Assembly: GCA_029565535.1 (NCBI GenBank) | Contig: JAKQNZ010000168.1 | Location: 4,635-68,634, forward strand | Length of the DNA: 64,000 nucleotides | Direction of reading: 5' to 3' | Source of the DNA: Candidatus Cloacimonadota bacterium | GTDB lineage: Bacteria > Cloacimonadota > Cloacimonadia > Cloacimonadales > Cloacimonadaceae | Shown: in pieces, positions 3,070 through 23,517 of the stretch | How the letters are laid out: each line of letters begins with the position of its first letter | Position numbering within the stretch: the first letter of the stretch is position 1 | Notes under the pieces: generated by a model | The model's input: only the letters and a program-made list of their open reading frames with translations | Told to the model about the DNA's origin: nothing | Databases searched by the model: none | Position numbers and translations under genes: made by a program

Positions 3070-5265
3070 ATGATCAGAAAACGCACACTGTTGTACTTGT
3101 TTGGCTTGATGCTGGTTTTTTTGGCACTTAGCGGATGTCTGGGCAGGGTTCGGCGCCCCGTCGCAAATTATTATGTGCTCGATTATCAGAAAAACTCCGA
3201 AGATCCCAAGCTGATCAGACCAACCAACACTGGTAAGATTCTGGAAGTCTCAAGCAGCTTTCTGCCAAAGACTTATGATCGCAATCAGATAGTTGTAAAA
3301 GAGCATTTCTACCGGGTGAAATTCATGCAGGATGAGCTGTGGGCAGACAAACTGCGAAACGCCATACCAAACCTCATCGCTCAGAGGCTTCGGGCTTATA
3401 ATATCTTTGGCAGCGTTACCAGGGGAGAGCAGCTATCCAAGGACCCAAATTTTTACCTGGAAACCAATATTCTGAATATCGAGAAAGTGGAGAGTGCTAC
3501 TCCTCAAGCCTATCTGAATATGGAGTTCATTCTCAGAGACTCCACCAACACCAGAATCATCCTAACGCATCGTAATCAACGTTCCACAGACCTGGTCGAT
3601 CCCAGCATGATCTCCCTGGTACAGGCATTCAACGAGATGCTGATGGAAGAGACCAATATCTTTGCCGCCAAATGTCTGCGTTATTTCTCCGGGACTTTGC
3701 AGCCTGAAAGAAGCTCTGCCCCCACAGCCAGCCACTTGGATAACTATATCTTCGAAAAAATGGAACAGCGCGACGAACAGGTTAGCTGGGGTGAGCTGAT
3801 GGTAAATACCAAAACTGAGACCTCCGACGAAATAGCCTATACGATTGTCGGTTTGGACAGTCTGAACAACGAGATCAGCCGCGATGAATGGATCATGGGC
3901 AAGGGCGCTCCTCTGAAACCCGGGCGCTATAAGGTAATCCTGGGCGATTTTGGCGAGATAAGCCTGCCCGTCGAGATAAAACCCAGGCAACGCAGCGTGT
4001 TGACCCCCACCTGGGGGGAGCTGAAAGTCGTCATCATGAATAACGCAAAGACACGCATCAGGCTCGGTTACGATATCTGGAAGAAAAAAGCCGATGATCA
4101 GGGCTATTTCCAGTACAGCACAGGTATGTTCAGTTTGGGCGACGACGAAATTGGCGGGGTGGACAAGCTGTGGTTATTGGCTCCCGGCCCCTATTTGGTA
4201 AAGCTGGGAGGCGGGCATTGGAGCGATCTGCAGAATTTTGCCACTGTCTCGCTTGCGCCAGGAGAAATGAAAACCTTTGTCATGATTGCCGATACCAATC
4301 CAATATCGTCTTCTGACATCCTGATCGGGGCCGGGGTTTTTGCCGATGATGATATCGGATTGGGTTCCAAACGCTGGCACAAAGGCTATGTACACTGGGA
4401 TTTCTCCCTTTTTGCCGATAACAAGCTGGAAGAAAATAAAACCACTTCCAGTTTGGATCTGAAGGCTGAATTCGTGAACAACATCGATCTACATGAGGGT
4501 ATCAGGCCTTTTCATTTCACTACCCGAAGCAGCTATGATCTGGGACTGAATCTAGCCAGTGGACGCGGTTTTAACTTTAGTCAGGACAGCTATTCTCTTA
4601 AAAGCGTCTTACTCCTCTATCCTCTGGAAAACAAAGCATTTTTCAAGAATTTCGCCTTCTACGGAAGAACGGATATTGACACTCACTTCTTCGATAAAAC
4701 CACTTTCTTCTCCGGTATGAAGAACATCAAACTTCTGGACAGCAACCAAAACCTATTGTCAACAATCGACAGTGTATCTGAACTGAAAACCCAAATCGCT
4801 TTCTATCCCTTTTCGTTAAGAAACGGAACCGGCCTCACCTATCGTATCAAACTGGGTAAAAACAATTTACTTAGCCTAAGGGGTGGTTATGGCTGGCAGC
4901 AGGATTATAACCAAAGAAGCTTCGTCGTTTCTGACTCAGTCTCCCTGGCAAAAGATGGCGTAGCAACTACCTATGACTACTACGTTGAGCAAATAGACCG
5001 TAGATCTAGAGGCCTGGAAAGCACTGTGATCCTGTCGGTGATGAACCTGCTGAATTTCCTGAGCATTAATTCCTCTGTGGATGTCCTCTTCCCCATGGGA
5101 CTGGAAGAAAAAGACTACCTGCTGAAAAACGAGAACAGCCTGAATATACGCATCTATAGAAACTTGTCGGTAGATATGAAACTGAACATCAAATACGACA
5201 GAGCGGTTAAAGACTGGATGGTTTATGATACCAGTTCAAACCTGCGTTTGTCCTTGTATTACTAA
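3070..5265 (+). CDS. Lipoprotein with an N-terminal PqiC/YmbA-like (DUF330, ABC-transport auxiliary) domain fused to about 500 aa of beta-rich, barrel-like sequence
   Basis: Lipobox 'LSGC' followed by 'NYYVLDY' (compare PqiC 'NYYQL'), and 'ELWADKLRNAIPNLIAQRL' (compare PqiC 'LWASPLDQQLRNTLVANL'). The C-terminus 'LRLSLYY' ends in an aromatic residue, as outer-membrane barrels do. GGAGG RBS present. Confidence 0.5.
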   Translation: MIRKRTLLYLFGLMLVFLALSGCLGRVRRPVANYYVLDYQKNSEDPKLIRPTNTGKILEVSSSFLPKTYDRNQIVVKEHFYRVKFMQDELWADKLRNAIPNLIAQRLRAYNIFGSVTRGEQLSKDPNFYLETNILNIEKVESATPQAYLNMEFILRDSTNTRIILTHRNQRSTDLVDPSMISLVQAFNEMLMEETNIFAAKCLRYFSGTLQPERSSAPTASHLDNYIFEKMEQRDEQVSWGELMVNTKTETSDEIAYTIVGLDSLNNEISRDEWIMGKGAPLKPGRYKVILGDFGEISLPVEIKPRQRSVLTPTWGELKVVIMNNAKTRIRLGYDIWKKKADDQGYFQYSTGMFSLGDDEIGGVDKLWLLAPGPYLVKLGGGHWSDLQNFATVSLAPGEMKTFVMIADTNPISSSDILIGAGVFADDDIGLGSKRWHKGYVHWDFSLFADNKLEENKTTSSLDLKAEFVNNIDLHEGIRPFHFTTRSSYDLGLNLASGRGFNFSQDSYSLKSVLLLYPLENKAFFKNFAFYGRTDIDTHFFDKTTFFSGMKNIKLLDSNQNLLSTIDSVSELKTQIAFYPFSLRNGTGLTYRIKLGKNNLLSLRGGYGWQQDYNQRSFVVSDSVSLAKDGVATTYDYYVEQIDRRSRGLESTVILSVMNLLNFLSINSSVDVLFPMGLEEKDYLLKNENSLNIRIYRNLSVDMKLNIKYDRAVKDWMVYDTSSNLRLSLYY

Positions 5266-5268
5266 AGA

Positions 5269-6351
5269 GTGAAAATGCGCTGGGAATACCGGGGAAATAC
5301 CCTTATCCTTGGTGGTGGACTTACTTACCGCACTATCCCCGCGGCATATCACAGCGTATTCCAATCGCTAAAACGCCATAAACCATCTGAGATAGACCTC
5401 GGTGAAGTGGAGACCATCGATAGTGCTGGCGTGGCTTTCCTGGACGAGATTCATACCCGCCTGGCCAGCAAGGGCATCTTGCTCTTCAAAGGAGCAAGAC
5501 CAGAGGTGCAGGCCGTCATCGATACCTTCAGCTCCATCAAGTTGCCTGTGCCTATTCCTCAAAGGAGCATGGGCTGGTTTGAAAAATTGGGGGACGATGC
5601 ATTAAACGCCGGTCAAAACATCTACCAATGCCTGCTCCTGGCCTCGGAAATCTATTATTTTTCGTTGGTTGGCCTCATCAGCCGCAAAGGCCAGCGCAAG
5701 GGTTCATTTGTCCAGCAGGCAGTGCTCCTGGGCTCGCAAGCCTTGCCAATAGTTGCTCTTCTATCGTTCATCATTGGCTTTATCCTGTCTCTGCAATCCG
5801 CAGTGCAACTGAAAAATTTCGGAGCTAACGTCTTCATCGCCGACCTCTTGGCAGTTACCATGGTACGTGAGATGGGGCCTATGATGACGGCCATAATCGT
5901 AGCGGGACGCAGTGGTTCGGCCATCGCTTCCGAAATCGCCACCATGCAGGTCACTGAGGAAATCGACGCACTTAGAATGATGGCTCTGAATCCCATCCGT
6001 TATGTAGTTGTGCCAAAGTTTCATGCCATTTCGCTGGTAATGCCCTTGCTGGTTGCTTTTTCCATTCTCGTGGGAGAAATCGGCGGGGGCCTGATCGCCA
6101 TTGGATATCTGGATGTTAGCTTGCCAACCTTTGTTCAGCGTTCCATCGAGATTACGACACTCAAAGACCTCGTGGTGAGCTTTGGAAAAAGCACCGTTTT
6201 CGCCTGGACGATAGTGATCATCGGTTCCTTTTTCGGATTCCAGGTGAAAGGTGGAGCGGAGGGAGTTGGCAAGGCAACTACCGCATCCGTGGTGGCTTCC
6301 ATCTTTGCCGTAATCGTCCTGGACGCCATTTTCAGTTTGTTATACCTATGA
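5269..6351 (+). CDS. mlaE: MlaE-type ABC permease with a fused N-terminal STAS (MlaB-like) domain. Start could be GTG 5269 or ATG 5275.
   Basis: The N-terminal ~95 aa include 'IDLGEVETIDSAGVAFLDEI', which is STAS-like. The rest is a multi-TM MlaE-like region ('REMGPMMTAIIVAGRSGSAIASEIATMQVTEEIDALRMM'). Confidence 0.8.
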   Translation: MKMRWEYRGNTLILGGGLTYRTIPAAYHSVFQSLKRHKPSEIDLGEVETIDSAGVAFLDEIHTRLASKGILLFKGARPEVQAVIDTFSSIKLPVPIPQRSMGWFEKLGDDALNAGQNIYQCLLLASEIYYFSLVGLISRKGQRKGSFVQQAVLLGSQALPIVALLSFIIGFILSLQSAVQLKNFGANVFIADLLAVTMVREMGPMMTAIIVAGRSGSAIASEIATMQVTEEIDALRMMALNPIRYVVVPKFHAISLVMPLLVAFSILVGEIGGGLIAIGYLDVSLPTFVQRSIEITTLKDLVVSFGKSTVFAWTIVIIGSFFGFQVKGGAEGVGKATTASVVASIFAVIVLDAIFSLLYL

Positions 6352-7088
6352 GTCAAGCCCTGATCAGCGTACGAAACCTGGTGGCCAAATATGGCGAAAG
6401 AACCATTCTGAACGACATCTCGGTGGATATCATGCCTGGCGAGGTTACAGTAATCCTGGGGGGCAGCGGCTGTGGTAAAACCACGCTGCTGAAGAATATC
6501 CTTCGCTTGCAGGAGCCTTTTTCCGGCAGTGTGAAATTTTGGGGAGATGAAGTGCTGCAGATGGACGAACCCAGTTTTTCGGGTATCCTGAAGCGTGTGG
6601 GAATGCTCTTTCAGAATGGCGCTCTGCTAAATTCCATCTCCGTCTATGAAAACATCAGCATTCCCCTGGAATTGCATACAAAGCTGCCAGAGGAGATCAG
6701 AGACCGGATTATCAGGGTAAAGCTAAGCCTGGTCCGCCTGGCTGAAGCTATCTACAAATACCCCAGCGAACTCAGCGGGGGCATGAAAAAACGCGCTGCC
6801 CTGGCCAGAGCTTTAGCCTTGGACCCAGAGATTCTCTTCTGCGACGAACCTTCCGCAGGACTGGATCCCCTCACTTCTGCAGCTTTGGATGAATTAATTC
6901 TGGACCTTCGCAAACAGCTAAAAATGACTATTGTGATCGTTACCCACGAGCTCGCTTCCATCCATCGCATCGCCGACCGGATAATCTTTTTGGACGGCGG
7001 AAAAATGCTCTTCAATGGTACTCTGGAAGCTGCTCTAAAGGCTGGCATCCCCGAAATTGACACCTTCTTCAGGGTAGGCCGCTTTTGA
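6348..7088 (+). CDS. mlaF: MlaF-type ABC transporter ATP-binding protein
   Basis: Walker A 'GGSGCGKTT', signature 'LSGGMKKRAALARAL', Walker B 'ILFCDEP'. ATGA overlap with the permease gene. Confidence 0.85.
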   Translation: MSQALISVRNLVAKYGERTILNDISVDIMPGEVTVILGGSGCGKTTLLKNILRLQEPFSGSVKFWGDEVLQMDEPSFSGILKRVGMLFQNGALLNSISVYENISIPLELHTKLPEEIRDRIIRVKLSLVRLAEAIYKYPSELSGGMKKRAALARALALDPEILFCDEPSAGLDPLTSAALDELILDLRKQLKMTIVIVTHELASIHRIADRIIFLDGGKMLFNGTLEAALKAGIPEIDTFFRVGRF

Positions 7089-7567
7089 TGATCTCACTGA
7101 TAGCAGCTATGGATAGAAACAGGCTGATCGGCGCAAGCGGTAAGCTGCCTTGGCAGATCAAAGAAGACCTCGCCTGGTTCAAACGCCAGACCCTGGGACA
7201 TCCTGTAATAATGGGCAGAAGAACTTGGCTTTCCTTGGGTAAAGCGCTCCCTGGCCGGAGAAATATCGTCCTGAGCAGGGACTCTGGTTGGGCAAGCCCG
7301 GGAGCGGAAATCGCTCCAGACATTCCAAGTGCAATTGCTTTATGCCAGGAAGAAGATGCCTTTGTAATTGGCGGTGCCAAGGTTTTTAACCTGTTTATGC
7401 CCTTGGCTGAGCGCTTGCTGATTACCCATATAGAAGCAGAATTTGAGGGCGACACCTACTTTCCGCCTTTTCCCGAAGAGCTCTGGCAGGTGCATAGCTG
7501 CGAGGAAATATTCAGTTCCCAAGGAATTACGCTTCGCTTCGTTATCTATTACAAGATTGTAGTTTAG
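7088..7567 (+). CDS. folA: Dihydrofolate reductase
   Basis: 'MISLIAAMDRNRLIGASGKLPW...VIMGRRTWLSLGKALPGRRNIVLS' is the classic DHFR N-terminus. The ATG overlaps the mlaF TGA (TGATG). Confidence 0.9.
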   Translation: MISLIAAMDRNRLIGASGKLPWQIKEDLAWFKRQTLGHPVIMGRRTWLSLGKALPGRRNIVLSRDSGWASPGAEIAPDIPSAIALCQEEDAFVIGGAKVFNLFMPLAERLLITHIEAEFEGDTYFPPFPEELWQVHSCEEIFSSQGITLRFVIYYKIVV

Positions 7568-7599
7568 CCTGGTACAAGCTGGCCTCGCAGATGCCCGCC

Positions 7600-7696
7600 G
7601 AGATCCTCCCCACTTCCACCCTTGTCCCATTGCCGAGGAATTCGGGTGGAATTCGGGTGGGATTCGGGTGAAACTGCAGGGGCAAGCAAGGAAGGC
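7600..7696. repeat. Dispersed repeat family, copy A. Contains 3 direct 'ATTCGGGTG' motifs and ends in 'GCAAGCAAGGAAGG'.
   Basis: Read directly. Three direct 'attcgggtg' copies at 7639-7670. The 3' end matches the copies at 38.9 kb and 61.2 kb. Lies between the convergent folA and cobB genes. Confidence 0.5.
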
Positions 7697-7697
7697 T

Positions 7698-8411
7698 TTA
7701 GTTTTGATACCACTCAGCTAAAAGCTTCGGCAATACCTCTCCGGATTTTCCCTGAAAAAAATGATCGATGAAACCCAGATTATCGGGCTTATCGAGGTTT
7801 ATGGCAAGGGTTTGAGCTCCCATAAGTTTTGCGCTCATTACAAAGCCTGCGGCCGGATACACAGCACCGCTGGTTCCAACTACCAGAAAGATTTCACAGA
7901 CCTTGAGGGCTTCTTCGATTTCGGGCAGAAAGTAAGGAACTTCGCCAAACCAAACAATGTCTGGCCGTAGTAAACCCTTGCAGGCAGGGCAGCCAGGCAA
8001 GTCTTCTGAGAGATTGATCTCCCGTAATGAGTATCCTGCTTCGCAGTTTGTGCAGTAGCAGTGGTTTAGGCTGCCATGCATCTCCCAAACTCTCCGATTA
8101 CCTGCCTTATAGTGAAGTCCATCAACATTCTGCGTTATAAGATTGAAATTATTCCCCAGCTTCTGTTCCAGTTCGGCCAGAGCCAGATGAGCCGTATTGG
8201 GAGTGGCAAGCTGGGCATCTTCCCAGCGTTTTTTATAAAAACTCCATACCAGTCGTGGATCACGCCTAAAACCCAAGGGAGATGCCACATCTTCCACGCG
8301 GTGGTTCTCCCACAAACCACCGCTGTCCCGGAAGGTGCGAATGCCTGACTCGGCGCTGATGCCAGCGCCAGTCAGGACAAGAACATTGGTATGGGGACGG
8401 ATTGAGATCAC
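7698..8411 (-). CDS. cobB: NAD-dependent protein deacylase (class III sirtuin, CobB type)
   Basis: 'GAGISAESGIRTFRDSGGLWE', 'QNVDGLH', Zn ribbon 'CTNC...CPAC'. The GTG start overlaps the stop of the upstream peptidase gene (GTGA). Confidence 0.9.
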   Translation of the reverse strand: MISIRPHTNVLVLTGAGISAESGIRTFRDSGGLWENHRVEDVASPLGFRRDPRLVWSFYKKRWEDAQLATPNTAHLALAELEQKLGNNFNLITQNVDGLHYKAGNRRVWEMHGSLNHCYCTNCEAGYSLREINLSEDLPGCPACKGLLRPDIVWFGEVPYFLPEIEEALKVCEIFLVVGTSGAVYPAAGFVMSAKLMGAQTLAINLDKPDNLGFIDHFFQGKSGEVLPKLLAEWYQN

Positions 8412-11400
8412 TTCAGCAAGAGCATCTTTTTGGTTAGCTGGTCATTTGCGGCTGTTAAGCGATAATAATATACGCCGCTGGCAACAAGCTGGTTTCTGGC
8501 ATCCTTGCCATCCCACACCAAACGATGAACCCCAGATGCCAGATCAGAATTGACCAGGGTTTTAACAAGCTGGCCCTTCAGATTGAATATATCCAGCCTT
8601 ACGGACTGACTGGAAGGCAGAGAGAAGCTGAGAGTAGTCTCAGGATTGAAGGGGTTGGGATAATTATCGAACAAAGCCAATGCAGGCAATTCGGGTACGA
8701 TCTCATCACAGTTTGGCACCACGCCGGCAATCTGCACATCGTCGATGTACCAGCCTTCTCCTCCCACGTAGCCGTCACTGCCAAACACCCATCTGAACTG
8801 AGCTGTGCCACTGATGTTGCCAAGCTCGAAGATAGCTTCTGTCCAGGAAAAATCGCCGGAATATACCGGAGTGTTAGCTGCAAAGGGTGAAGCATTATTG
8901 TTATAGATTTGATAGGGATAGCCGCCTTGAGGCGTGATCTGGGTCCAGGAACCGCCATTCAGACTCATCTGAACCATACCGCCGTCCCAGGCGTAGCTTG
9001 GGTTGCTGTGAGTTTCAGCTTCCATCCAATGGAAGAACTTTAGCTGGCAGCCAGGACTAACATTCATGACGGGGCTGAGTAATGCTCCATAGGCCGAACC
9101 GGAATAAGTGGCGGTGGTTGTGCTGCCAAACTTCATGGCATACTGGCCGTTGGGAGTGTGATTGCGTACGTTCGACCGGTGCCATTGGTTGGTAAAGTTC
9201 TGGTTCAAAACTATGGAATCCCAGCCCTGAAAATCGGGCTCGAAACCATAACTGATAGTGCCGACATGGATGAGGAAGGTTCCCTCTACCACATCGCCAT
9301 TCTCAGAATTCAGGATGTAGCTGATGGGAATGCTGCTTCCCATCTCGGCTCCCTCCAGAATCTGGACGCTGATAATATCATTCTGGGTAAGAGTCCCGTT
9401 ATGCGGAATGTATTGCAGGCATAATTCATATTGATTCAGTATGGCATAAGGCGAATCTGTGAAGAGAATCATCAGAGGGTTATAACAATTACCGCTGCCG
9501 TTGTTTGATACCGTAATACTGATAGTGGGAGTCTGGCCAGGGTTGATAACCTGGGTTGCATTGTTCACCTGATACGAATCGACGCTCAGATGCGGCGCAT
9601 TCAGGGTAATGTATGCGGTGGATTGGGAGCTGTAGCCGGCATAACTGGCCGCGAAACTTAGCGGAGCCCGCGTCCCGTCTGTGAAGCTACCTCTGATGCC
9701 AAAACTCAGAACCGCCACGATCTGCAATGAATCACCGCTGGCTAGGGCATTGAAACTGGTAGTGCCATTCAAAATCTGGAGATTGGGGCTGCTGCTGGAA
9801 AGGGTAACGGTGCCGCTTTCCGTAAGATCGACCAAGCCCACGTTTTTCACATGGAAATTGATGAGAACATTCTCTCCTGTGTGATATAAGCCATCTGGAT
9901 CGTTAAACTGAACGTTGTTGCACACGATGTAAGGCATTTGAGCCGCACTGACCTGAATTGTGTTTTGGTAGCTGTAAAAATTTGGAGCGTTGATGTATAC
10001 TTGGTAGGCTCCGGGAGTAAGCGCTTCCAAAAGGCTTAAATTAATCAGCCCGTCCTGGTTTGCCTGGGTAGAAACAATCGTGGTGCCATCCTGTTTCAGG
10101 ATGAATTCGGCATTAGGTGCATTGGTGCTGATCTGATAGTTGTTTACTCCAACCAGCCATTGGTCGGGAAAATTGGCTACCACGGTTTGGGGTGTGTCTG
10201 TCCAAAGCATCATGGCTGGATCGCCAAAGAGATTTGTTTCATAGGTAACCCAATGCATCACCGGAGTATTACTGATATAGGGAATATTGTCTATCTTGCT
10301 ATCCACCAGAGTATAGCCAAGCTCCAGGATATTTTCGCCAAACACAGCGTCCATATACTGGCGATGCAGATATTGGGATGCGCCATCGGTGCTCCCCTGC
10401 ATACCCCAGCCATAACGTGAATGAGCTATCATGGCCACTGGGCCGGTTGTAATGGACATCAATTTTTCTGTGATGCAATCGCTCGTATAGCTACCAGCCT
10501 GGGTTTCCCGGTTGTCGAAGGCACCTGAGTAGCAACCTTGGGTAAAGTATGTGGAAAAGTTATGATTACTACCGTTATTAGTAATAGAGGTAGCGCTGGC
10601 TTGATTGTTTGATAAGCGCATCGTATAGGTGGTATTGGAATGGCCCAGATGATTCACGAAGTTCGGTCCCTGACTAAGCAATGGTCTGATATCATTTGCA
10701 TCCCAGGATTCCTCTGCTCCATAGGTACGGTCATAGAGCGTAGTAATATTCCAGGTAGTGGGAACACCCACGGTCGTATATCCGTGCATACTGCTTCCCC
10801 CTATCATTTCGTCCATATAGTCGCCACCCCAGGTAGGGCCGTCCCACAGCCATTCTCCAGCAAAAAAAGCACTTTTGATCTCTGCTTCCACAGGTACTAT
10901 CATATAGCTCAATACCTTGTTGATAAAGGTAGCGATATCTGTATCGCTATTGTAACAAGCTCTGCCAATGGCAAGCTCGGGAGCCAGATCAGCTTCGTAG
11001 CTTTCACCCCAGTAGGTATCGTTATCGTTGTTCCAGGTACCGTCCAGGCAGGAATAATACATGTCGGCAGGGATATCAGCATCGCTTTCGCTGCCATTAC
11101 CAAGATTTACGTAGAAACCGCGATGGGGTATTATGTCGGTATCTCCCGCCAATAGCACATATCGCAAGGGATTGGTGGAATATAGTGATATGATGTAATT
11201 ACGCAGTTTTTCCTGGGTATCGGCTCCTGTGCCAGTGGCCGTGATTTCATTGATTGATTTGATCAGGACATTGCGACCCCGGTCATTATGTAAGCTTCTA
11301 AGCGGTTCCCAGTTTGAAATCTTGTTCTGATCACAAACGATCAAATATTCCACGCCAGTTTCCCGGGTTCTGGCAGATTGGATTGCCTCGGGATTGTCGA

Positions 11401-11989
11401 TGCTGTTGCGAAGTCTGGCCGCGGTAAGCGGATCTTGTTTCAGCAGTTGCAAGGCATTGGAAGCTCTGTTGCTGGCATTGTAATCGATGTTTATACTGAG
11501 AGTCTGGTAGTAAACAAGTTCATTTTTGGCAGGATAATAGGCAAATGGACTAACTGCGCTAAAGGCAATCGGATTCCCGCTCAGAAAATGGGTTTGCAGT
11601 CCGTTGTACAGCTGTTCCGGATAGGGATCGGTTGAGCCATACACATTTGGTAATGGCTCCGTGCGAGCCTCAAGCACGGTATGGGAGAATGGATATTGTT
11701 TTTGCAAGGGGGCGATGGGCTTCTCCAAGGCATATACAATTGGATTTGAGCGGTTAACGCTAATCTGTTCAGCTTCAAAGCCAGCAGGAAGAAGTACCTT
11801 CACTCCATACCAGGGTAAAGCCGGCAATCCTGGTTCACCCCAGTTCTGGGCATCTTTCAAAAGAACTTCCGTGTATTGAGTTCCAGTAGTGATTTTCGGA
11901 GCCTGGAGGTTGTATTGAACGTTCACTCCAGCAGTTAGAATTGCCGCCATACTCAATATAACAGCACACAGTAATAGGTTTCTCATCAT
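8408..11989 (-). CDS. Peptidase C25 (gingipain-like) with a T9SS-type C-terminal sorting domain
   Basis: Signal peptide, 'VLLAGDTDIIPHRGF', candidate catalytic 'NHLGHSN' and 'TQGCYSGAFD'. C-terminus 'NYPNPFNPETTLSF...GVYYYRL...KKMLLLK'. Confidence 0.75.
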   Translation of the reverse strand: MMRNLLLCAVILSMAAILTAGVNVQYNLQAPKITTGTQYTEVLLKDAQNWGEPGLPALPWYGVKVLLPAGFEAEQISVNRSNPIVYALEKPIAPLQKQYPFSHTVLEARTEPLPNVYGSTDPYPEQLYNGLQTHFLSGNPIAFSAVSPFAYYPAKNELVYYQTLSINIDYNASNRASNALQLLKQDPLTAARLRNSIDNPEAIQSARTRETGVEYLIVCDQNKISNWEPLRSLHNDRGRNVLIKSINEITATGTGADTQEKLRNYIISLYSTNPLRYVLLAGDTDIIPHRGFYVNLGNGSESDADIPADMYYSCLDGTWNNDNDTYWGESYEADLAPELAIGRACYNSDTDIATFINKVLSYMIVPVEAEIKSAFFAGEWLWDGPTWGGDYMDEMIGGSSMHGYTTVGVPTTWNITTLYDRTYGAEESWDANDIRPLLSQGPNFVNHLGHSNTTYTMRLSNNQASATSITNNGSNHNFSTYFTQGCYSGAFDNRETQAGSYTSDCITEKLMSITTGPVAMIAHSRYGWGMQGSTDGASQYLHRQYMDAVFGENILELGYTLVDSKIDNIPYISNTPVMHWVTYETNLFGDPAMMLWTDTPQTVVANFPDQWLVGVNNYQISTNAPNAEFILKQDGTTIVSTQANQDGLINLSLLEALTPGAYQVYINAPNFYSYQNTIQVSAAQMPYIVCNNVQFNDPDGLYHTGENVLINFHVKNVGLVDLTESGTVTLSSSSPNLQILNGTTSFNALASGDSLQIVAVLSFGIRGSFTDGTRAPLSFAASYAGYSSQSTAYITLNAPHLSVDSYQVNNATQVINPGQTPTISITVSNNGSGNCYNPLMILFTDSPYAILNQYELCLQYIPHNGTLTQNDIISVQILEGAEMGSSIPISYILNSENGDVVEGTFLIHVGTISYGFEPDFQGWDSIVLNQNFTNQWHRSNVRNHTPNGQYAMKFGSTTTATYSGSAYGALLSPVMNVSPGCQLKFFHWMEAETHSNPSYAWDGGMVQMSLNGGSWTQITPQGGYPYQIYNNNASPFAANTPVYSGDFSWTEAIFELGNISGTAQFRWVFGSDGYVGGEGWYIDDVQIAGVVPNCDEIVPELPALALFDNYPNPFNPETTLSFSLPSSQSVRLDIFNLKGQLVKTLVNSDLASGVHRLVWDGKDARNQLVASGVYYYRLTAANDQLTKKMLLLK

Positions 11990-12119
11990 GAACCAACCTT
12001 ACTTAGTTTATTTATCTTCTGTCTGATTATATCAGCAAGGCTTGTTCCAAAACTCAAGTTTTATTTGAAGTCAGGAGTATGGACTGCTAGAAAACAACAT
12101 TTAAGCCAGAACAACCTGA

Positions 12120-13856: not shown

Positions 13857-14471
13857 TCAGGAAACGAGCGCTACCCCGGCATGAAGAATCTGGCGAATTC
13901 GCTGGCCGATCGTATCGATATCCATCTCATTCTCCCCGGCCAGCCAGTTCCACAGAACAATGTCCATGCTGCCAACCAATAAAAGCGCAAGGGCTTCAGC
14001 GTCAATCGTTTTGATCTGATTTTCCTGAATTGCGGAAGTAGTAACCTCCTTTACAAAATCCAAATATTTTAGCAAGGGATTATAGCCAGGATTGCGACGG
14101 ATGAAATTCTCGTTTTGCCTTGCTTCCACAGCGATGAAACGGGCTATGTAGGGCTTCTCCTTTACCAAGGCCACATGATGCATAAAAAACTCATACAGCC
14201 GATCCATGTGATTGGATACCTCGGCAGTTCTATTGATAATCCCATTTATCTCTGTTTCTATTATCTCTTTCATGCAGTGCTGTAAAAGATCGTCTTTGCT
14301 GTCGAAGTAAACGTACACGGTTCCCAAGGCTACTCTGGCTTTTTTTGCCACATCGGCGATCGTAGCCTGATTTGAGCCTTTTCTGGCAAACACTTCTATG
14401 GCAGCATTCAGCAGCAATTCCCGTTTGTTTTGACGACCTGCTTTTCTCAAAGGTACATTATTTCTGGGCAT
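13857..14471 (-). CDS. TetR/AcrR-family transcriptional regulator
   Basis: N-terminal HTH 'ATIADVAKKARVALGTVYVYFDSKDDLL'. Size about 200 aa. Confidence 0.85.
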   Translation of the reverse strand: MPRNNVPLRKAGRQNKRELLLNAAIEVFARKGSNQATIADVAKKARVALGTVYVYFDSKDDLLQHCMKEIIETEINGIINRTAEVSNHMDRLYEFFMHHVALVKEKPYIARFIAVEARQNENFIRRNPGYNPLLKYLDFVKEVTTSAIQENQIKTIDAEALALLLVGSMDIVLWNWLAGENEMDIDTIGQRIRQILHAGVALVS

Positions 14472-14756: not shown

Positions 14757-15235
14757 CGCTGGAATTCCGATGTCCCCACCGGAATGGCTTACCCGGTGTC
14801 TTACCGGGTTATCAAACTGCCAGCGAGGACGCTGGAGCTCCATACGAAGGAATGTCGGTGTCCCCACCGGAATGGCTTACCCGGTATCTTACCGGGTTAT
14901 CAAACTGCCAGCGAGGACGCTAGCAGACCACTCCAGCGAGGACGCTGGAGCTCCATACGAAGGAGTTTCGGTGTCCCCACCGGAATGGCTTACCCGGTGT
15001 CTCACAGGGTTATCAAACTGCCAGCGAGGACGCTAGCAGACCACTCCAGCGAGGACGCTGGAGTTCCATACGAAGGAATTCCGGTGTCCCCACCGGAATG
15101 GTTTACCCGGTGTCTCACCGGGTTATCAAACTGCCAGCGAGGACGCTGGAGCTCCATACGAAGGAGTTTCGGTGTCTCTACCGGAATGGTTTACCCGGTG
15201 TCTCACAGGGTTATCAAACTGCCAGCGAGAACGCT
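14757..15235. repeat. Tandem array of 5 copies of an ~88-bp unit. Copy 1 carries a 15-bp deletion. Two junctions carry a 25-bp sub-repeat insert.
   Basis: Units at 14757-14829, 14830-14917, 14943-15030, 15056-15143 and 15144-15230. Inserts at 14918-14942 and 15031-15055. Each unit holds 2-3 short hairpins. Confidence 0.9.
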
Positions 15236-15313: not shown

Positions 15314-16651
15314 TTACACCAGACCTTGATCGCACATGGCATTGGCGACCTTCAGGAAACCAGCGATATTAGCGCCTTTCACATAGTTCACATAACCGTC
15401 TGCTTCCTTGCCGTTGTTGCGGCAGGCAGCGTGGATGTTTTTCATGATCTCATGCAAACGGGCGTCGACTTCGGTTCTGTTCCAGCCCAGGCGCATGGAG
15501 TTCTGGGTCATTTCCAGACCGCTAGTAGCTACGCCGCCTGCATTGGCAGCTTTTCCTGGAGCAAAGAGCATCCTGGCTTTCTGGAAGATTTCCACTGCTT
15601 CGGGAGTGCAGGGCATATTTGCAGCTTCAGTTACACAGATGCAGCCGTTGGCAACCAAGGCCTTGGCATCGTTGGCATCCAGTTCGTTCTGAGTAGCGCA
15701 GGGAATGGCAACATCCACCTTCACTTCCCAAGGACGTTTGCCGGCGAAGAACTTGGCATTCGGGAAAACATCGGCATAATCACACACGCGATCGTTGTTG
15801 GAAGCACGGAGCTCCAGCATGTAGTCTATCTTTTCGCCGCTGATGCCGTCTTCATCCAAAATGTAGCCGTCGGGACCGGAGAGAGTGATAACCTTTCCGC
15901 CCAGTTCGTTAATCTTTTGGGCAGCTCCCCAGGCAACGTTTCCAAAGCCGGAGAGAGCTACTTTCATTCCTTCGAAGCTCTTGCCCTGAGTTTTCAGCAT
16001 TTCTTCGGCAAAGTAAACCACACCAAAGCCTGTAGCTTCAGGACGGATGAGGCTTCCGCCCCAGTTTATGCCTTTACCGGTGAGTACGCCGGTAAATTCG
16101 TTTTTAAGCTTTTTATACATTCCGAACATGTAGCCGATTTCGCGTCCGCCCACGCCGATATCACCTGCGGGAACATCGGTGTCGGGACCGATATGACGAT
16201 AAAGCTCGGATATGAAAGACTGGCAGAAACGCATTATTTCAGCGTCGCTCTTGCCTTTGGCGTCAAAATCGCTACCACCTTTTCCTCCGCCCATAGGCAG
16301 GGTTGTAAGGCTGTTTTTGAAAATCTGCTCAAAGCCAAGGAACTTTAATATGGAGAGATTTACACTGGGGTGAAAACGCAGACCGCCCTTGTAAGGCCCG
16401 ATAGCGCTGTTAAACTGAACACGATAGCCGCGCTGTACGTGCACTTCACCTTTGTCGTCCATCCAGGGAACGCGGAAAATTATCACTCTTTCAGGTTCCA
16501 CAATGCGTTCAAGGATGTTTGCTTTCACGAAGCGGGGATTGCTCACATAAGCATCCCAAATGGTTTCGACAACTTCTTTAACTGCTTGCAAGAACTCGGG
16601 TTCGCCAGGGTTCTTGGCTGCGACTTTGGCCATGAAATCATGGATAGTCAT
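15314..16651 (-). CDS. gdhA: NADP-specific glutamate dehydrogenase
   Basis: 'GPYKGGLRFHPSVN', 'PMGGGKGGSDFDAKGKSD', 'SGFGNVAWGAA'. 445 aa. Confidence 0.95.
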   Translation of the reverse strand: MTIHDFMAKVAAKNPGEPEFLQAVKEVVETIWDAYVSNPRFVKANILERIVEPERVIIFRVPWMDDKGEVHVQRGYRVQFNSAIGPYKGGLRFHPSVNLSILKFLGFEQIFKNSLTTLPMGGGKGGSDFDAKGKSDAEIMRFCQSFISELYRHIGPDTDVPAGDIGVGGREIGYMFGMYKKLKNEFTGVLTGKGINWGGSLIRPEATGFGVVYFAEEMLKTQGKSFEGMKVALSGFGNVAWGAAQKINELGGKVITLSGPDGYILDEDGISGEKIDYMLELRASNNDRVCDYADVFPNAKFFAGKRPWEVKVDVAIPCATQNELDANDAKALVANGCICVTEAANMPCTPEAVEIFQKARMLFAPGKAANAGGVATSGLEMTQNSMRLGWNRTEVDARLHEIMKNIHAACRNNGKEADGYVNYVKGANIAGFLKVANAMCDQGLV

Positions 16652-16738: not shown

Positions 16739-17959
16739 TCAGTTGCCCTCCAAGAGCTTAGCCACTCTGGGAGCGCGCAAACGGTGTGCCACTGGAAAGC
16801 CTGAACCAATCAGAGGCCTTAAGTAAAACTTGAAGTCGTCGGTAACCCCGTTTCCGCTGGAATTGATGTATTCATCTGGCATGTGACGGGTCTTGCCGGC
16901 TATGTCGTTTAGCTTTTCCAGCTGGTAGTTTACAGAATAAAAGCCTGTGCGCTGGATAGAGATTGAGCCATCCAGATTGTACCAAATGGCAAAATGAGCT
17001 GCCCTTTCCCCCACCTCTCTTGCTTCACGCTGGTCGACATCCGAGACGCATCCGATAAACGAGCGTTGCAAATACCCGAAGGTATCGCTGCGGACCCGCT
17101 TGATTTTAAGTTTGGTTTTTATCAGGTCGCAGAGCAGATCACCCAGCATTCCGCTGCCCGATAGCTGCACATTTCCGTGTGCATCGTGCTCGACACTGCT
17201 GCTAAGCTTTGTGATAATCGGCACTCCCTTGTCGTCCACGATCCCTTCCGAAACGGCAACGACACACTTTCCATATTGGTTGTAAATCCTTTGCACATCA
17301 GCCAGGAAATCTTCGCGGTGGAAAGGACGCTCCGGCATGTAAACAAGGTGTGGCCCATCATCCGGATATTTCTGAGCCAGGGCGGAAGCGGCGGTCAGAA
17401 AACCGGCATGGCGACCCATTACCACCCCTATATAGACGCCAGGCAGAGCCCGATTATCCAGGTTAACACCCGTAAAGGCAGAAGCCACGAATCTGGCGGC
17501 AGAACCATAGCCTGGAGTATGATCGTTCAGCACCAGATCATTGTCGATTGTTTTGGGAATGTGGATGGCTCTGAATTCGTAATCAGCCTGATTTGCCTGT
17601 TCATTCACGATCCGCACCGTATCTGCGGAGTCGTTACCCCCAATGTAAAAGAAATAGCGAACGTCATGCGCTTTTAGCACTTTGAAGATTTCTTTGCAGT
17701 ATTCTTCATCTGGTTTATCCCGGGTTGACATCAAAGCTGATGAGGGAGTGTCTGCCACTTGCTCCAGATTGTGTGTGGTTTCCTGGGTAAGGTCTACAAA
17801 TTCTTCGTTGATAATGCCCTGCACACCGTAAAGGGCTCCATAAACGCGAGTTACCTGTGAAAACTTCCTCGCTTCCAAAGCAGCTCCCACCAATGATTGA
17901 TTTATGACCGCCGTGGGGCCTCCGCCCTGTGCGATCACCACCTTTCCTTCCAGTTTCAT
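16739..17959 (-). CDS. pfp: Phosphofructokinase-family enzyme with a PPi-dependent signature (diphosphate--fructose-6-phosphate 1-phosphotransferase)
   Basis: 'IGGNDSAD' gives Asp at the E. coli G104-equivalent position. 'IPKTIDNDL' gives Lys at the G124-equivalent. Both are the established PPi-versus-ATP discriminators. Confidence 0.7.
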   Translation of the reverse strand: MKLEGKVVIAQGGGPTAVINQSLVGAALEARKFSQVTRVYGALYGVQGIINEEFVDLTQETTHNLEQVADTPSSALMSTRDKPDEEYCKEIFKVLKAHDVRYFFYIGGNDSADTVRIVNEQANQADYEFRAIHIPKTIDNDLVLNDHTPGYGSAARFVASAFTGVNLDNRALPGVYIGVVMGRHAGFLTAASALAQKYPDDGPHLVYMPERPFHREDFLADVQRIYNQYGKCVVAVSEGIVDDKGVPIITKLSSSVEHDAHGNVQLSGSGMLGDLLCDLIKTKLKIKRVRSDTFGYLQRSFIGCVSDVDQREAREVGERAAHFAIWYNLDGSISIQRTGFYSVNYQLEKLNDIAGKTRHMPDEYINSSGNGVTDDFKFYLRPLIGSGFPVAHRLRAPRVAKLLEGN

Positions 17960-20864: not shown

Positions 20865-21113
20865 CTACATTTCGATCATTTTGGCCTGAACGTAATCAAC
20901 CTTGTTCAGGGCTTCCAGCATATTGGCCAATTCATTGGGATCGCCATCCACTTCCAGGATCACCAATCCATCGTTGGCGCAAAACTCCTTGGAAACTTCA
21001 TGCAAACCCAGGCGAACCTTTATGCTGCATCCAAACTGGGTAAGGATTTCCTGCACTTTGGTGGCTTCTGTGCTGCGGTGATCGATTTTTACCAATACGA
21101 CTTTGTAAATCAT
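20865..21113 (-). CDS. Small ACT/NikR-C-like protein resembling the TM1266 family (putative iron-only hydrogenase system regulator)
   Basis: 82 aa. The pattern 'VVLVKIDHRSTEATKVQEILTQFGCSIKVRLGLH...LVILEV.GD' matches what I recall of the family. Not verified by search. Confidence 0.4.
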   Translation of the reverse strand: MIYKVVLVKIDHRSTEATKVQEILTQFGCSIKVRLGLHEVSKEFCANDGLVILEVDGDPNELANMLEALNKVDYVQAKMIEM

Positions 21114-22851: not shown

Positions 22852-23069
22852 GTTTGTTCCTTGGTTCTAATAGCATATAGTCTCAGCTTTTGGGATTGGG
22901 GTTTTCAGTCAAGCTAAAGATGCAGGCGCCAATACGAGTAATATTTCTACACTGCGGAGGAAATCCACGTTTTTCTTGTGATCCTGCTGGGTTCTGCAAG
23001 CCCCGTACAAGGTACGCATTGTATTGTTTTATATGGTTTTAGCTGAATCTAATCTGATAATCTCTCGTT

Positions 23070-23085
23070 TGGCACGGCACTTGCA
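23070..23085 (+). promoter_or_regulatory. Sigma-54 (RpoN) -24/-12 promoter
   Basis: 'TGGCACGGCACTTGCA' matches the consensus TGGCACG-N4-TTGCW at every conserved position. It lies 36 nt upstream of the ATG at 23121. Confidence 0.7.
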
Positions 23086-23120
23086 CATATGTGGTTAAAC
23101 AAACTACAGTGAGGTACAGC

Positions 23121-23456
23121 ATGGCAGTAATTGCCCGCACCATCCTTCGGAAAGTAGAACTGGAGAGTTATATAAAAAGAGACTTTCTGGACAAGAGCTT
23201 TAACCGCGATGGGCTCTGTGCATATTGTGTTCGAAAGCATAGTTGCTGCCTTACTGGAGATTTTGGCCTGGTTTACGATTGCGATGAATACGAAGCGGGA
23301 GCTGAGGAAACCAATCCCCTTACCTTCACCACGCTCGACCTGGGTAAAGAAGACGATGCAGCAGTTTACGGGCTTTGTGCCCAGTGCCAGATCCGGGACA
23401 TTTGCCAGTTGAAAAATATCAACGGGGGAGTTTGGCACTGCGAAGAATATCAATAA
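23121..23456 (+). CDS. Small cysteine-rich protein (111 aa) with an internal duplication of a C-x2-C-x5-C-x12/13-C-x-EY module
   Basis: Modules 'GLCAYCVRKHSCCLTGDFGLVYDCDEYE' and 'GLCAQCQIRDICQLKNINGGVWHCEEYQ'. RBS 'GTGAGGT' upstream of the ATG. Bracketed by the sigma-54 promoter and a terminator. Confidence 0.6.
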   Translation: MAVIARTILRKVELESYIKRDFLDKSFNRDGLCAYCVRKHSCCLTGDFGLVYDCDEYEAGAEETNPLTFTTLDLGKEDDAAVYGLCAQCQIRDICQLKNINGGVWHCEEYQ

Positions 23457-23494
23457 ACCACTTACAGACGACACATACCTCAACACACACACAT

Positions 23495-23517
23495 GGGGGC
23501 TCCCCGCCCCCTTTTTT
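23495..23517 (+). terminator. Rho-independent terminator
   Basis: 'GGGGGC-TCCCC-GCCCCC' followed by TTTTTT, 38 nt after the stop of the Cys-rich ORF. Confidence 0.75.

Follow-up and report, generated by a model that had tools for sequence, protein, structure and literature searches.

A predicted sigma-54-dependent gene of Cloacimonadota encodes a member of an unnamed family of two-module cysteine proteins whose genes often accompany those of glutamate-forming enzymes

In a 64-kb stretch of DNA from a Candidatus Cloacimonadota bacterium (contig JAKQNZ010000168.1; the whole stretch is referred to here as the window), a perfect match to the sigma-54 promoter consensus precedes a small gene whose product carries two cysteine modules. 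Protein and gene are both abbreviated X in the following. Our preferred reading, which we hold at a probability of roughly 45%, is that X belongs to a sigma-54 nitrogen regulon and, as a metal-binding and probably iron-sulfur (Fe-S) protein, serves the glutamate-forming enzymes as an accessory or regulatory partner. X is probably an unrecognized player in nitrogen assimilation because its relatives sit in glutamate-making operons under a nitrogen-type two-component regulator. The regulatory architecture is of the classical NtrBC/sigma-54 type; the new part is an unclassified family of small Cys proteins within it.

Close homologs of the window protein formed 24 clusters with 50 to 99% identity, all from Cloacimonadota, and an exhaustive HMMER search returned 606 representatives at 50% clustering. 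A profile search yielded 1188 clusters at 90% identity, nearly all of them with lengths of 85 to 140 amino acids (aa); a typical member has roughly 90 to 125 aa. When one genome per species was scanned, 428 loci were found in at least 15 phyla. Besides Cloacimonadota, the carriers comprise Planctomycetota, Myxococcota, other former Deltaproteobacteria, Clostridia (Tindallia and Anoxynatronum, the latter with the cultured species A. buryatiense and A. sibiricum at L033 and L064), Spirochaetota, Zixibacteria, Hydrogenedentota, Ignavibacteria, Bacteroidales, Fibrobacterota, Verrucomicrobiota, Kiritimatiellae, Lentisphaeria, Gemmatimonadota, and WOR-3. Among the best 120 of the 1188 homologs, all names given by the source were "hypothetical" except for one evident JGI misannotation, and no precomputed Pfam domain was present. 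The window protein had no Pfam match at an E value of ≤10, and searches of Pfam, NCBIfam, and PDB sequences with the single protein and with profiles returned nothing above threshold. Literature searches on sigma-54 regulons, on glutamate dehydrogenase (GDH) and glutamate synthase, and on Cloacimonas yielded no description of X, nor did PMC12316311 and PMC4641369. As judged from these searches, X is a large unnamed family without a Pfam, NCBIfam, or PDB assignment. A first-pass annotation of the window, made from the sequence alone, had likewise been unable to assign the protein to a named family; the HMMER search and structure prediction that it proposed delivered hundreds of homologs, no named family, and no fold match in the PDB.

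Two copies of the pattern G-L-C-x2-C-x5-C-x11-C-[DE]-E-[YF] are present in the window protein. The profiles of the two modules aligned with a probability of 99.1% (E = 4e-19), a value that is somewhat inflated by our having cut out the modules with a Cys-pattern regular expression, and positions other than Cys also agreed between the modules (G-L, V/I-aromatic, and E-E-[FY]). At the level of sequence, X is a true internal duplication, as had been proposed, and the acidic linker described between the modules is present as well. The spacing of x12/13 originally given for the third and fourth Cys was not found; it is x11 in both modules. In the 24 clusters of close homologs, C36, C42, C54, C86, C89, C95, C107, and H106 were invariant and C33 was kept at 90% or more, so that the cysteines passed the conservation check suggested for them, and the module Cys were invariant or nearly so across 150 diverse members. 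The earlier description as an 8-cysteine protein fits the eight conserved residues; the total is nine, C43 being the one without conservation. The family consensus reads GLCxTCxxxxxC-x8-PVxxCEEF, a variable acidic linker, and GLCxNCxxRxxC-x5-EGGVWHCEEY[QR] followed by the stop. Module 2 is the best-conserved part, and nearly all members end in GGVWHCEEY. Cloacimonadota members share 30 conserved, lineage-specific N-terminal residues, and the N termini of other members are variable and often rich in Lys/Arg. AlphaFold2 was run on the window protein and on a canonical 97-aa member (overall pLDDT of ~70 each). The modules were predicted to be compact with moderate confidence (pLDDT of 75 to 85), and the linker was of low confidence and looked disordered in both models. 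For the N terminus of the window protein, which had been predicted to be helical, the model showed, again with moderate confidence, a helix at residues 20 to 26 and also a short strand at residues 6 to 11, so that it is not purely helical. Foldseek found 0 matches in the PDB for both models; because of this and of a pLDDT of only ~70, a fold assignment was impossible.

The link to glutamate formation comes from the genes that surround the relatives of X. Context and promoters were analyzed in the 80 best-scoring of the 428 loci (designated by L numbers; 28 of the 80 are from Cloacimonadota), with clustering of neighbors and Pfam scans of these neighbors. Outside Cloacimonadota, the usual order was kinase, activator, X, and then either GDH or NuoE, NuoF::GltD, ferredoxin, and GltB. 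According to Pfam, the kinase is a soluble histidine kinase with GAF-like, HisKA, and HATPase domains. The activator is of the NtrC type (REC, sigma-54 AAA+, and Fis-type helix-turn-helix [HTH] domains) and is encoded on the same strand about 300 nucleotides (nt) upstream of X. In 38 loci, X was found directly downstream of the kinase-activator pair, usually as the first cistron. GDH-only operons with X were counted in 14 to 22 loci, and the gap between X and GDH was about 0 to 140 nt. The glutamate synthase (GOGAT)-type operon encodes a NuoE-like [2Fe-2S] protein, a NuoF::GltD fusion of 1061 aa, a 2Fe-2S/4Fe-4S ferredoxin, and a GltB-like flavin mononucleotide (FMN) subunit. In roughly 30 loci, NuoE directly followed X, at a gap of 2 to 126 nt or in apparent overlap; where ORF picking missed NuoE, the gene is evidently present because the gap between X and NuoF::GltD is still about 940 nt. 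As far as sequence comparison can tell, the family across phyla would belong to the regulon of one orthologous two-component system that consists of a GAF kinase and an NtrC-type activator and that has the glutamate-forming enzymes as its other targets. Of the inducing signals listed as candidates in the first-pass annotation, nitrogen or glutamate status is therefore favored by the gene context of the relatives, whereas metal or envelope stress found no such pointer.

Several loci depart from the usual order. In L060, promoter and enhancer precede GDH, X, NuoE, and the genes that follow, and in L067 the order is X, GDH, NuoE, and NuoF::GltD. L047 contains two paralogs: one closes the GOGAT operon, 19 nt after GltB, and the other, which has its own sigma-54 site, directly precedes GDH at the head of the GDH operon. 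Two tandem copies of X precede NuoE in L075. In L056 (6010-6882), from a Polyangiaceae metagenome-assembled genome, X is fused in frame to a NuoE-like thioredoxin-like [2Fe-2S] domain. X sequences that are nearest neighbors of each other shared the operon type in 26 of 28 cases for GOGAT and in 8 of 14 cases for GDH. The NuoE/NuoF::GltD/ferredoxin/GltB operon, with a fusion protein of ~1060 aa, itself recurs across many phyla (L029 to L080). It looks like an apparently undescribed NADH-linked, possibly bifurcating, glutamate synthase, and its architecture is reminiscent of the Stn/Nfn complexes (PMC7483475).

The sigma-54 promoter proposed for the window gene was then compared across the family. 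The 80 loci and the window hold 83 family genes; for each gene, the 350 nt before the first Cys module were scored against TGGCAC-N5-TTGCW, which has 11 specified positions. All 11 positions matched in 24 of the 83 genes, at least 10 in 50, and at least 9 in 71, whereas only 1.3% of 4692 control windows of 350 nt from the same loci, true sites included, reached a score of 10. In most Cloacimonadota orthologs, the motif was located 138 to 153 nt upstream of the first Cys module, and it recurred in many phyla, upstream of most of the relatives outside Cloacimonadota. Sigma-54 dependence of X, as put forward in the first-pass annotation, is thus strongly supported by comparison, and its question of whether homologs also carry -24/-12 promoters can be answered with yes.

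A search for shared palindromes 80 to 200 bp upstream of the promoter had also been suggested, and a conserved element was found in this region (Table 1). It is the only conserved block between glnS and X in 20 Cloacimonadota loci (consensus, TGGGGAATAATTCCCCAGTGnGGAnTAnATCCCCA); 35 to 40 nt could be aligned, from about -135 to -100, and the rest of the intergenic region was unconserved. Scored with a matrix of the other 19 loci, the window copy reached 30.9 bits and the next-best site on both strands of the whole window 8.4 bits. Across phyla, GGGGA-N5-TCCCC stood out when the inverted repeats that precede the promoters were counted without bias. This pan-phylum palindrome, CACTGGGGA-N5-TCCCCAGTG, has the extended consensus CACTGGGGA(A/G)WWW(T/C)TCCCCAGTG. 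The 400 nt that precede the -24 motif contained 47 sites with at most one mismatch, compared to a background density of 0.09 per kb; the distance to the motif was 100 to 240 nt in nearly all cases, and the sites often formed pairs 18 to 19 bp apart. The block in the window is the lineage form of this palindrome and constitutes a candidate activator-binding site. In the Clostridia loci L028, L032, and L033, strong copies of the palindrome (up to 22.7 bits) were observed about -100 to -200 from the ATG of GDH, where no sigma-54 motif was present. These copies suggest that the activator of Clostridia may have a further site of action at a GDH promoter not of the sigma-54 type, where it might be a repressor.

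In the window, enhancer, promoter, ORF, and terminator make up what is best described as a monocistronic, enhancer-dependent sigma-54 unit (Table 1). The promoter TGGCACGGCACTTGCA is the sole zero-mismatch match to the consensus on both strands of the window; by our own arithmetic, ~0.06 such matches would be expected by chance. From the usual sigma-54 geometry, transcription is expected to start near 23095-23096, and the plus strand upstream of the ORF had no sigma-70-type promoter match. Orthologs carry comparable GAGG/GGAG motifs before the ATG, and the choice of the ATG is backed by an N terminus, MA[VIT]xA[RK]T, that is kept in orthologs. The best genomic match, an ortholog with 95% protein identity in L001, marks the organism as a relative of Candidatus Cloacimonas. 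Compared to this ortholog, the dN/dS ratio was 0.036, not the value of about 1 against which the first-pass annotation had proposed to check it; judged by these substitutions, the ORF is a genuine gene under strong purifying selection. The terminator hairpin has a folding energy of -13.5 kcal/mol (z = -3.0), and 1 of 200 shuffled sequences folded equally well. The RpoN promoter, GAGG ribosome-binding site, 111-aa ORF, and GC hairpin with T6 tract were thus all placed correctly at first pass. A riboswitch or leader RNA was rejected, as an Rfam scan gave no match, and an opposite-strand ORF (23049-23492) was rejected on the pattern of conservation. The unit is flanked by dnaX, a glycosyltransferase gene, and the divergent glnS upstream and by secD and secF downstream. 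An 82-aa ORF without a Pfam match (20865-21113, minus strand) lies between the glycosyltransferase gene and glnS.

Table 1. Features of the X unit and related sites in the window, and positions in compared loci
Feature	Position	Strand	Remarks
Candidate enhancer CGAGTAATATTTCTACACTGCGGAGGAAATCCACG, two adjacent degenerate dyads CGAGTAATATTTCTACA / CTGCGGAGGAAATCCACG	22935-22969	+	101-135 bp upstream of the -24 element
Sigma-54 (-24/-12) promoter TGGCACGGCACTTGCA	23070-23085	+	11/11 match to TGGCAC-N5-TTGCW
Ribosome-binding site GAGG	23111-23114	+	Sequence read directly; ATG 6 nt further, at 23121
ORF, 111 aa	23121-23456	+	Stop codon included; acidic product, pI 4.7
Module 1 (residues 31-58) GLCAYCVRKHSCCLTGDFGLVYDCDEYE	23211-23294	+	Ligand candidates C33, C36, C42, C54
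Acidic linker (residues 59-83)	23295-23369	+	Variable length and sequence; 6 D+E versus 1 K+R
Module 2 (residues 84-111) GLCAQCQIRDICQLKNINGGVWHCEEYQ	23370-23453	+	Ligand candidates C86, C89, C95, C107; also W105, H106
Intrinsic terminator	23495-23517	+	6-bp all-GC stem, 5-nt loop (GGGGGC-TCCCC-GCCCCC), then T6
Glutamate dehydrogenase gene	15314-16651	-	Appears orthologous to the kinase-activator-X-linked GDH of L027, L081-L087
One-mismatch sigma-54-like site TGGCACACCGTTTGCG	16776-16791	-	124 nt upstream of the GDH ATG; probably a chance match
L047, X paralogs	5158-5457 and 5866-6279		
L075, X paralogs	4905-5279 and 5339-5653		
L075, example of NuoE/NuoF::GltD/ferredoxin/GltB operon	5802-9873		
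L060, example of NuoE/NuoF::GltD/ferredoxin/GltB operon	6300-11044		

The initial description of X as a stand-alone gene holds for Cloacimonadota, while elsewhere the usual, and ancestral, setting is kinase, activator, X, and GDH or GOGAT. In the main Cloacimonadota lineage, to which the window belongs, X and glnS are always divergently oriented and the genes downstream of X vary. A sister lineage (L026/L027 and L081 to L086) keeps the order GDH, kinase, activator, and X. The activator was not found in the neighborhoods of X in the main lineage, and tblastn of the window with the cognate activator found nothing, so the remark that no enhancer-binding protein gene is nearby was correct for the window. 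When the activator of L027 was used for a homology search, orthologs were detected only in the sister lineage with the linked arrangement. The location of X away from activator and enzymes indicates that the gene was uncoupled in the main lineage while its promoter and enhancer were kept. Conserved downstream genes of Cloacimonadota were considered as hidden activators and rejected, since they encode an AMP-binding enzyme, an aldolase, DnaN, an MFS transporter, and the like. An apparent NuoF-GltD 5 kb downstream in some Cloacimonadota turned out to be a thioredoxin-reductase-like protein encoded beside GlmS, a clustering artifact. A sigma-54-like site with one mismatch upstream of the GDH gene of the window (Table 1) was considered as a second target and dismissed as a probable chance match because it is located inside the PFK coding region, lacks an enhancer, and is not conserved. 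GDH is separated from a TetR-family gene (13857-14471, minus strand) by 840 nt, most of which are taken up by a tandem repeat array (14820-15235; periods of 113 and 88 nt with 93 to 95% matches). This position downstream of GDH is occupied by the kinase-activator(-X) genes in the sister lineage. Another one-mismatch site, TGGAACAAGCCTTGCT (12034-12049, minus strand), is intergenic and located 45 nt upstream of a gene for a 1193-aa C25 peptidase (8408-11989, minus strand) with a type IX secretion sorting tail.

On this basis, we propose the following mechanism. The kinase would report an intracellular signal related to nitrogen or glutamate, and the phosphorylated activator would bind the palindromes and remodel the sigma-54 RNA polymerase (RNAP). 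X would be made together with the enzymes or, in Cloacimonas, from its own unit. Each module may bind a metal center, most likely an Fe-S cluster. In favor of metal or Fe-S binding are the two homologous modules with their eight conserved Cys, of which seven are invariant. X could then dock on GDH or on the NuoE side of GOGAT and tune the activity to the redox or cluster state. A number of observations weigh against such an enzyme partner. The NuoE fusion of L056 is a single case and could result from a lost stop codon, and the grouping of X sequences by operon type is confounded with taxonomy. Clostridia show the order GDH, kinase, activator, and X, in which X is the first gene of an operon shared with a Zn-type alcohol dehydrogenase and an amidohydrolase and not with a glutamate enzyme. 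X of the Cloacimonas lineage is unlinked from any enzyme, the nearest GDH being 6.5 kb away on the other strand; neither the activator nor rpoN was found in the window, and the enhancer copy there is degenerate compared to the pan-phylum consensus. Both structure models are only moderate and lack a Foldseek match, the modules may bind Zn instead of Fe-S, and GDH is not known to need a metal-protein partner.

The position of X just upstream of NuoE, the NuoE fusion, and the presence of two Cys4 modules in an operon rich in Fe-S and flavin carriers, which recalls the Stn/Nfn-type complexes (PMC7483475), could also be explained by an electron-transfer function. X would then be a ferredoxin-like subunit with two [4Fe-4S] clusters of the NuoE/NuoF::GltD/ferredoxin/GltB enzyme, and its GDH-linked or lone occurrence would be secondary. 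We regard this as unlikely. X is linked equally tightly to GDH-only operons, and GDH uses NAD(P)H directly; about 24 loci of Cloacimonadota have X alone, and such a complex was absent from the surrounding 5 to 6 kb and from the window. Neither a CxxCxxCxxxCP motif nor a Fer4 Pfam match was present, and a long disordered acidic linker together with a variable basic N-terminal tail is atypical for ferredoxins. An enzyme partner is therefore preferred over an electron carrier, because X commonly occurs in GDH-only operons or alone, lacks the ferredoxin motif, and has its modules tethered by a disordered linker. It is likewise doubtful that X feeds back on transcription, either as a WhiB/FNR-like Fe-S sensor or as a PspA-like anti-activator, by binding to the activator, sigma-54, or RNAP and thereby setting how strongly its own regulon is expressed in response to redox, O2, or NO. 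Such a role would suit the usual position of X as first cistron directly behind the kinase-activator pair, the fact that it is the only recognizable target kept with intact promoter and enhancer in Cloacimonadota, and the basic N-terminal tail of many members. Both modules also resemble the WhiB core (C-x2-C-x-x-R-x-x-C ... G-[VI]-W), with weak PF02467 matches in 16 of 150 members. However, the fourth Cys comes after and not before the triad, hhalign to WhiB reached only 6%, the window protein had no Pfam match, and neither WhiB nor any other PDB entry matched structurally. X lacks a DNA-binding domain, and the separate paralogs for each enzyme operon in L047 would be unexpected for a single feedback regulator. 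The paralogs per operon, the grouping by operon type, the NuoE fusion, and the tight spacing lead us to prefer an enzyme partner over transcriptional feedback. A broader proposal, which we advance with considerable reservation, is that the family represents a pan-phylum class of Fe-S sensors of anaerobes (with the WhiB/FNR-like C-x2-C-x5-C) that couples redox or cluster status to glutamate synthesis by binding GDH and the new NuoEF-GltD-GltB glutamate synthase, or else the NtrC-type activator or sigma-54 machinery.

It is very improbable that X is a Zn structural, chaperone-like, or metal-stress (metallothionein-type) protein unrelated to nitrogen metabolism. A Cys4 site can take Zn as readily as Fe-S, four members weakly matched PerR and one Zur in NCBIfam, and some NtrC-family systems (ZraSR) respond to metals (PMC12316311). 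The neighbors are, however, consistently glutamate enzymes rather than genes for metal transport or efflux; the kinase, a soluble protein with GAF-like domains, is not a periplasmic metal sensor; Cys residues at about 8% with fixed spacing are unlike those of metallothioneins; and the NCBIfam scores were far below the curated cutoffs. The "metal-handling" protein suggested in the first-pass annotation is consequently unlikely in the sense of detoxification. Finally, consensus matches do arise by chance, and five other one-mismatch sites were present in the window, so that ORF and promoter could both be fortuitous. This explanation is effectively refuted by the conservation data: the low dN/dS ratio, hundreds of homologs with invariant Cys, a promoter position conserved across orthologs and phyla, and a conserved enhancer.

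Nitrogen assimilation by GDH and by glutamine synthetase (GS)-GOGAT and its control by sigma-54/NtrC are textbook systems. An unnamed Cys-rich protein of ~100 aa inside this type of regulon, in at least 15 phyla and more than 1100 sequence clusters, is what our analysis adds to them. The sigma-54 promoter and the defined enhancer palindrome constitute a ready-made, testable regulon, and the results support a new family model and a regulatory-site model for annotation. If X indeed binds an Fe-S cluster and modulates or supplies glutamate enzymes, redox or iron status would be tied to the central entry of nitrogen in anaerobes, including the Cloacimonadota, which are dominant in anaerobic digesters. 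X would then also help to define the apparently undescribed NuoE/NuoF::GltD/ferredoxin/GltB glutamate synthase. If the sensor class were real, it would represent an extra layer of nitrogen-assimilation control and the first WhiB-like module outside Actinobacteria.

Among known families, the closest motif-level analog is WhiB (PF02467). WhiB, FNR, EndoIII, and AddB hold their [4Fe-4S] clusters with the spacing C-x2-C-x5-C, which is also that of the triad in X; WhiB proteins moreover bind region 4 of sigma-70. X and WhiB share a small size (about 80 to 120 aa), this triad, an Arg three residues past the second Cys, and G-[VI]-W some 8 residues on. Weak Pfam WhiB matches among the 150 members were counted at an E value of ≤0.1, with a best value of 3e-4, and in local HMM alignments, with scores of at most 16 bits, the stretch C-x-x-C-x-[VI]-R-x-x-C fell on the WhiB core for each of the two modules; the hhalign probability was obtained against a profile of manually entered WhiB sequences. 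The order in WhiB is C-x(14-22)-C-x2-C-x5-C followed by G[VI]WGG, whereas X has C-x2-C-x5-C-x11-C with GG[VI]WHC before the last Cys. WhiB thus carries one module with the fourth Cys before the triad and X two modules with the fourth Cys after it. Unlike WhiB, X has no basic C-terminal tail, and it occurs in Cloacimonadota, Planctomycetota, Myxococcota, Clostridia, and others and not in Actinobacteria, to which WhiB belongs. Membership in WhiB was therefore rejected because of the low profile-profile probability and the different order of the fourth Cys; from the WhiB-like spacing noted at first pass, the triad remains, with weak, subthreshold profile support. Ferredoxins with two [4Fe-4S] clusters and accessory subunits of NuoEF-type complexes (HydABC/Stn/Nfn) share two Cys4 sites and a small acidic protein with X, which is moreover encoded beside NuoE and NuoF::GltD and in one case fused to NuoE. 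They differ by their CxxCxxCxxxCP motif in one compact domain, whereas X has two modules on a disordered linker and is also GDH linked or alone. Fer4 was not among the 25 Pfam families most often matched by the 150 members. A zinc ribbon or C4 zinc finger is contradicted by the single CxxC per module, and Pfam zinc-ribbon matches were sporadic and limited to single members; the PerR and Zur matches concerned the Cys-rich ends of these proteins. No radical-SAM enzyme, as would accompany a SCIFF-type peptide, was present among the recurrent annotated neighbor clusters.

The regulatory setting resembles the NtrB/NtrC-sigma-54 regulon (enteric glnAp2 type) and the control of GDH by RocR/SigL in Bacillus. 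Shared features are a two-component kinase with a REC-AAA+-HTH activator, tandem palindromic enhancers 100 to 200 bp upstream of the -24/-12 promoter, and targets in glutamate or ammonia assimilation. The enteric NtrC site is TGCACC-N5-GGTGCA, from which the X enhancer GGGGA-N5-TCCCC differs. Compared to the enteric and Bacillus systems, the X regulon is distinguished by the GAF-like sensor domains of the kinase and by an extra small Cys protein that is absent from those systems; compared to NtrB/NtrC and RocR/SigL, the activator is not adjacent to X in the window. GDH under sigma-54 control has been described for Bacillota (PMC12316311). At the level of the enzymes, the preferred reading of X as a partner protein finds its counterpart in small regulators of assimilation. 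The PII proteins GlnB and GlnK, of 112 aa, are cotranscribed as glnB-glnA or glnK-amtB. PII and the cyanobacterial GS-inactivating factors IF7/IF17 are neither Cys-rich nor metal binding and have no sequence or predicted-fold likeness to X, but by analogy X may follow the same logic of a protein of ~100 aa that is coexpressed under the nitrogen regulator, often as the first cistron, with the assimilation enzyme on which it would act.

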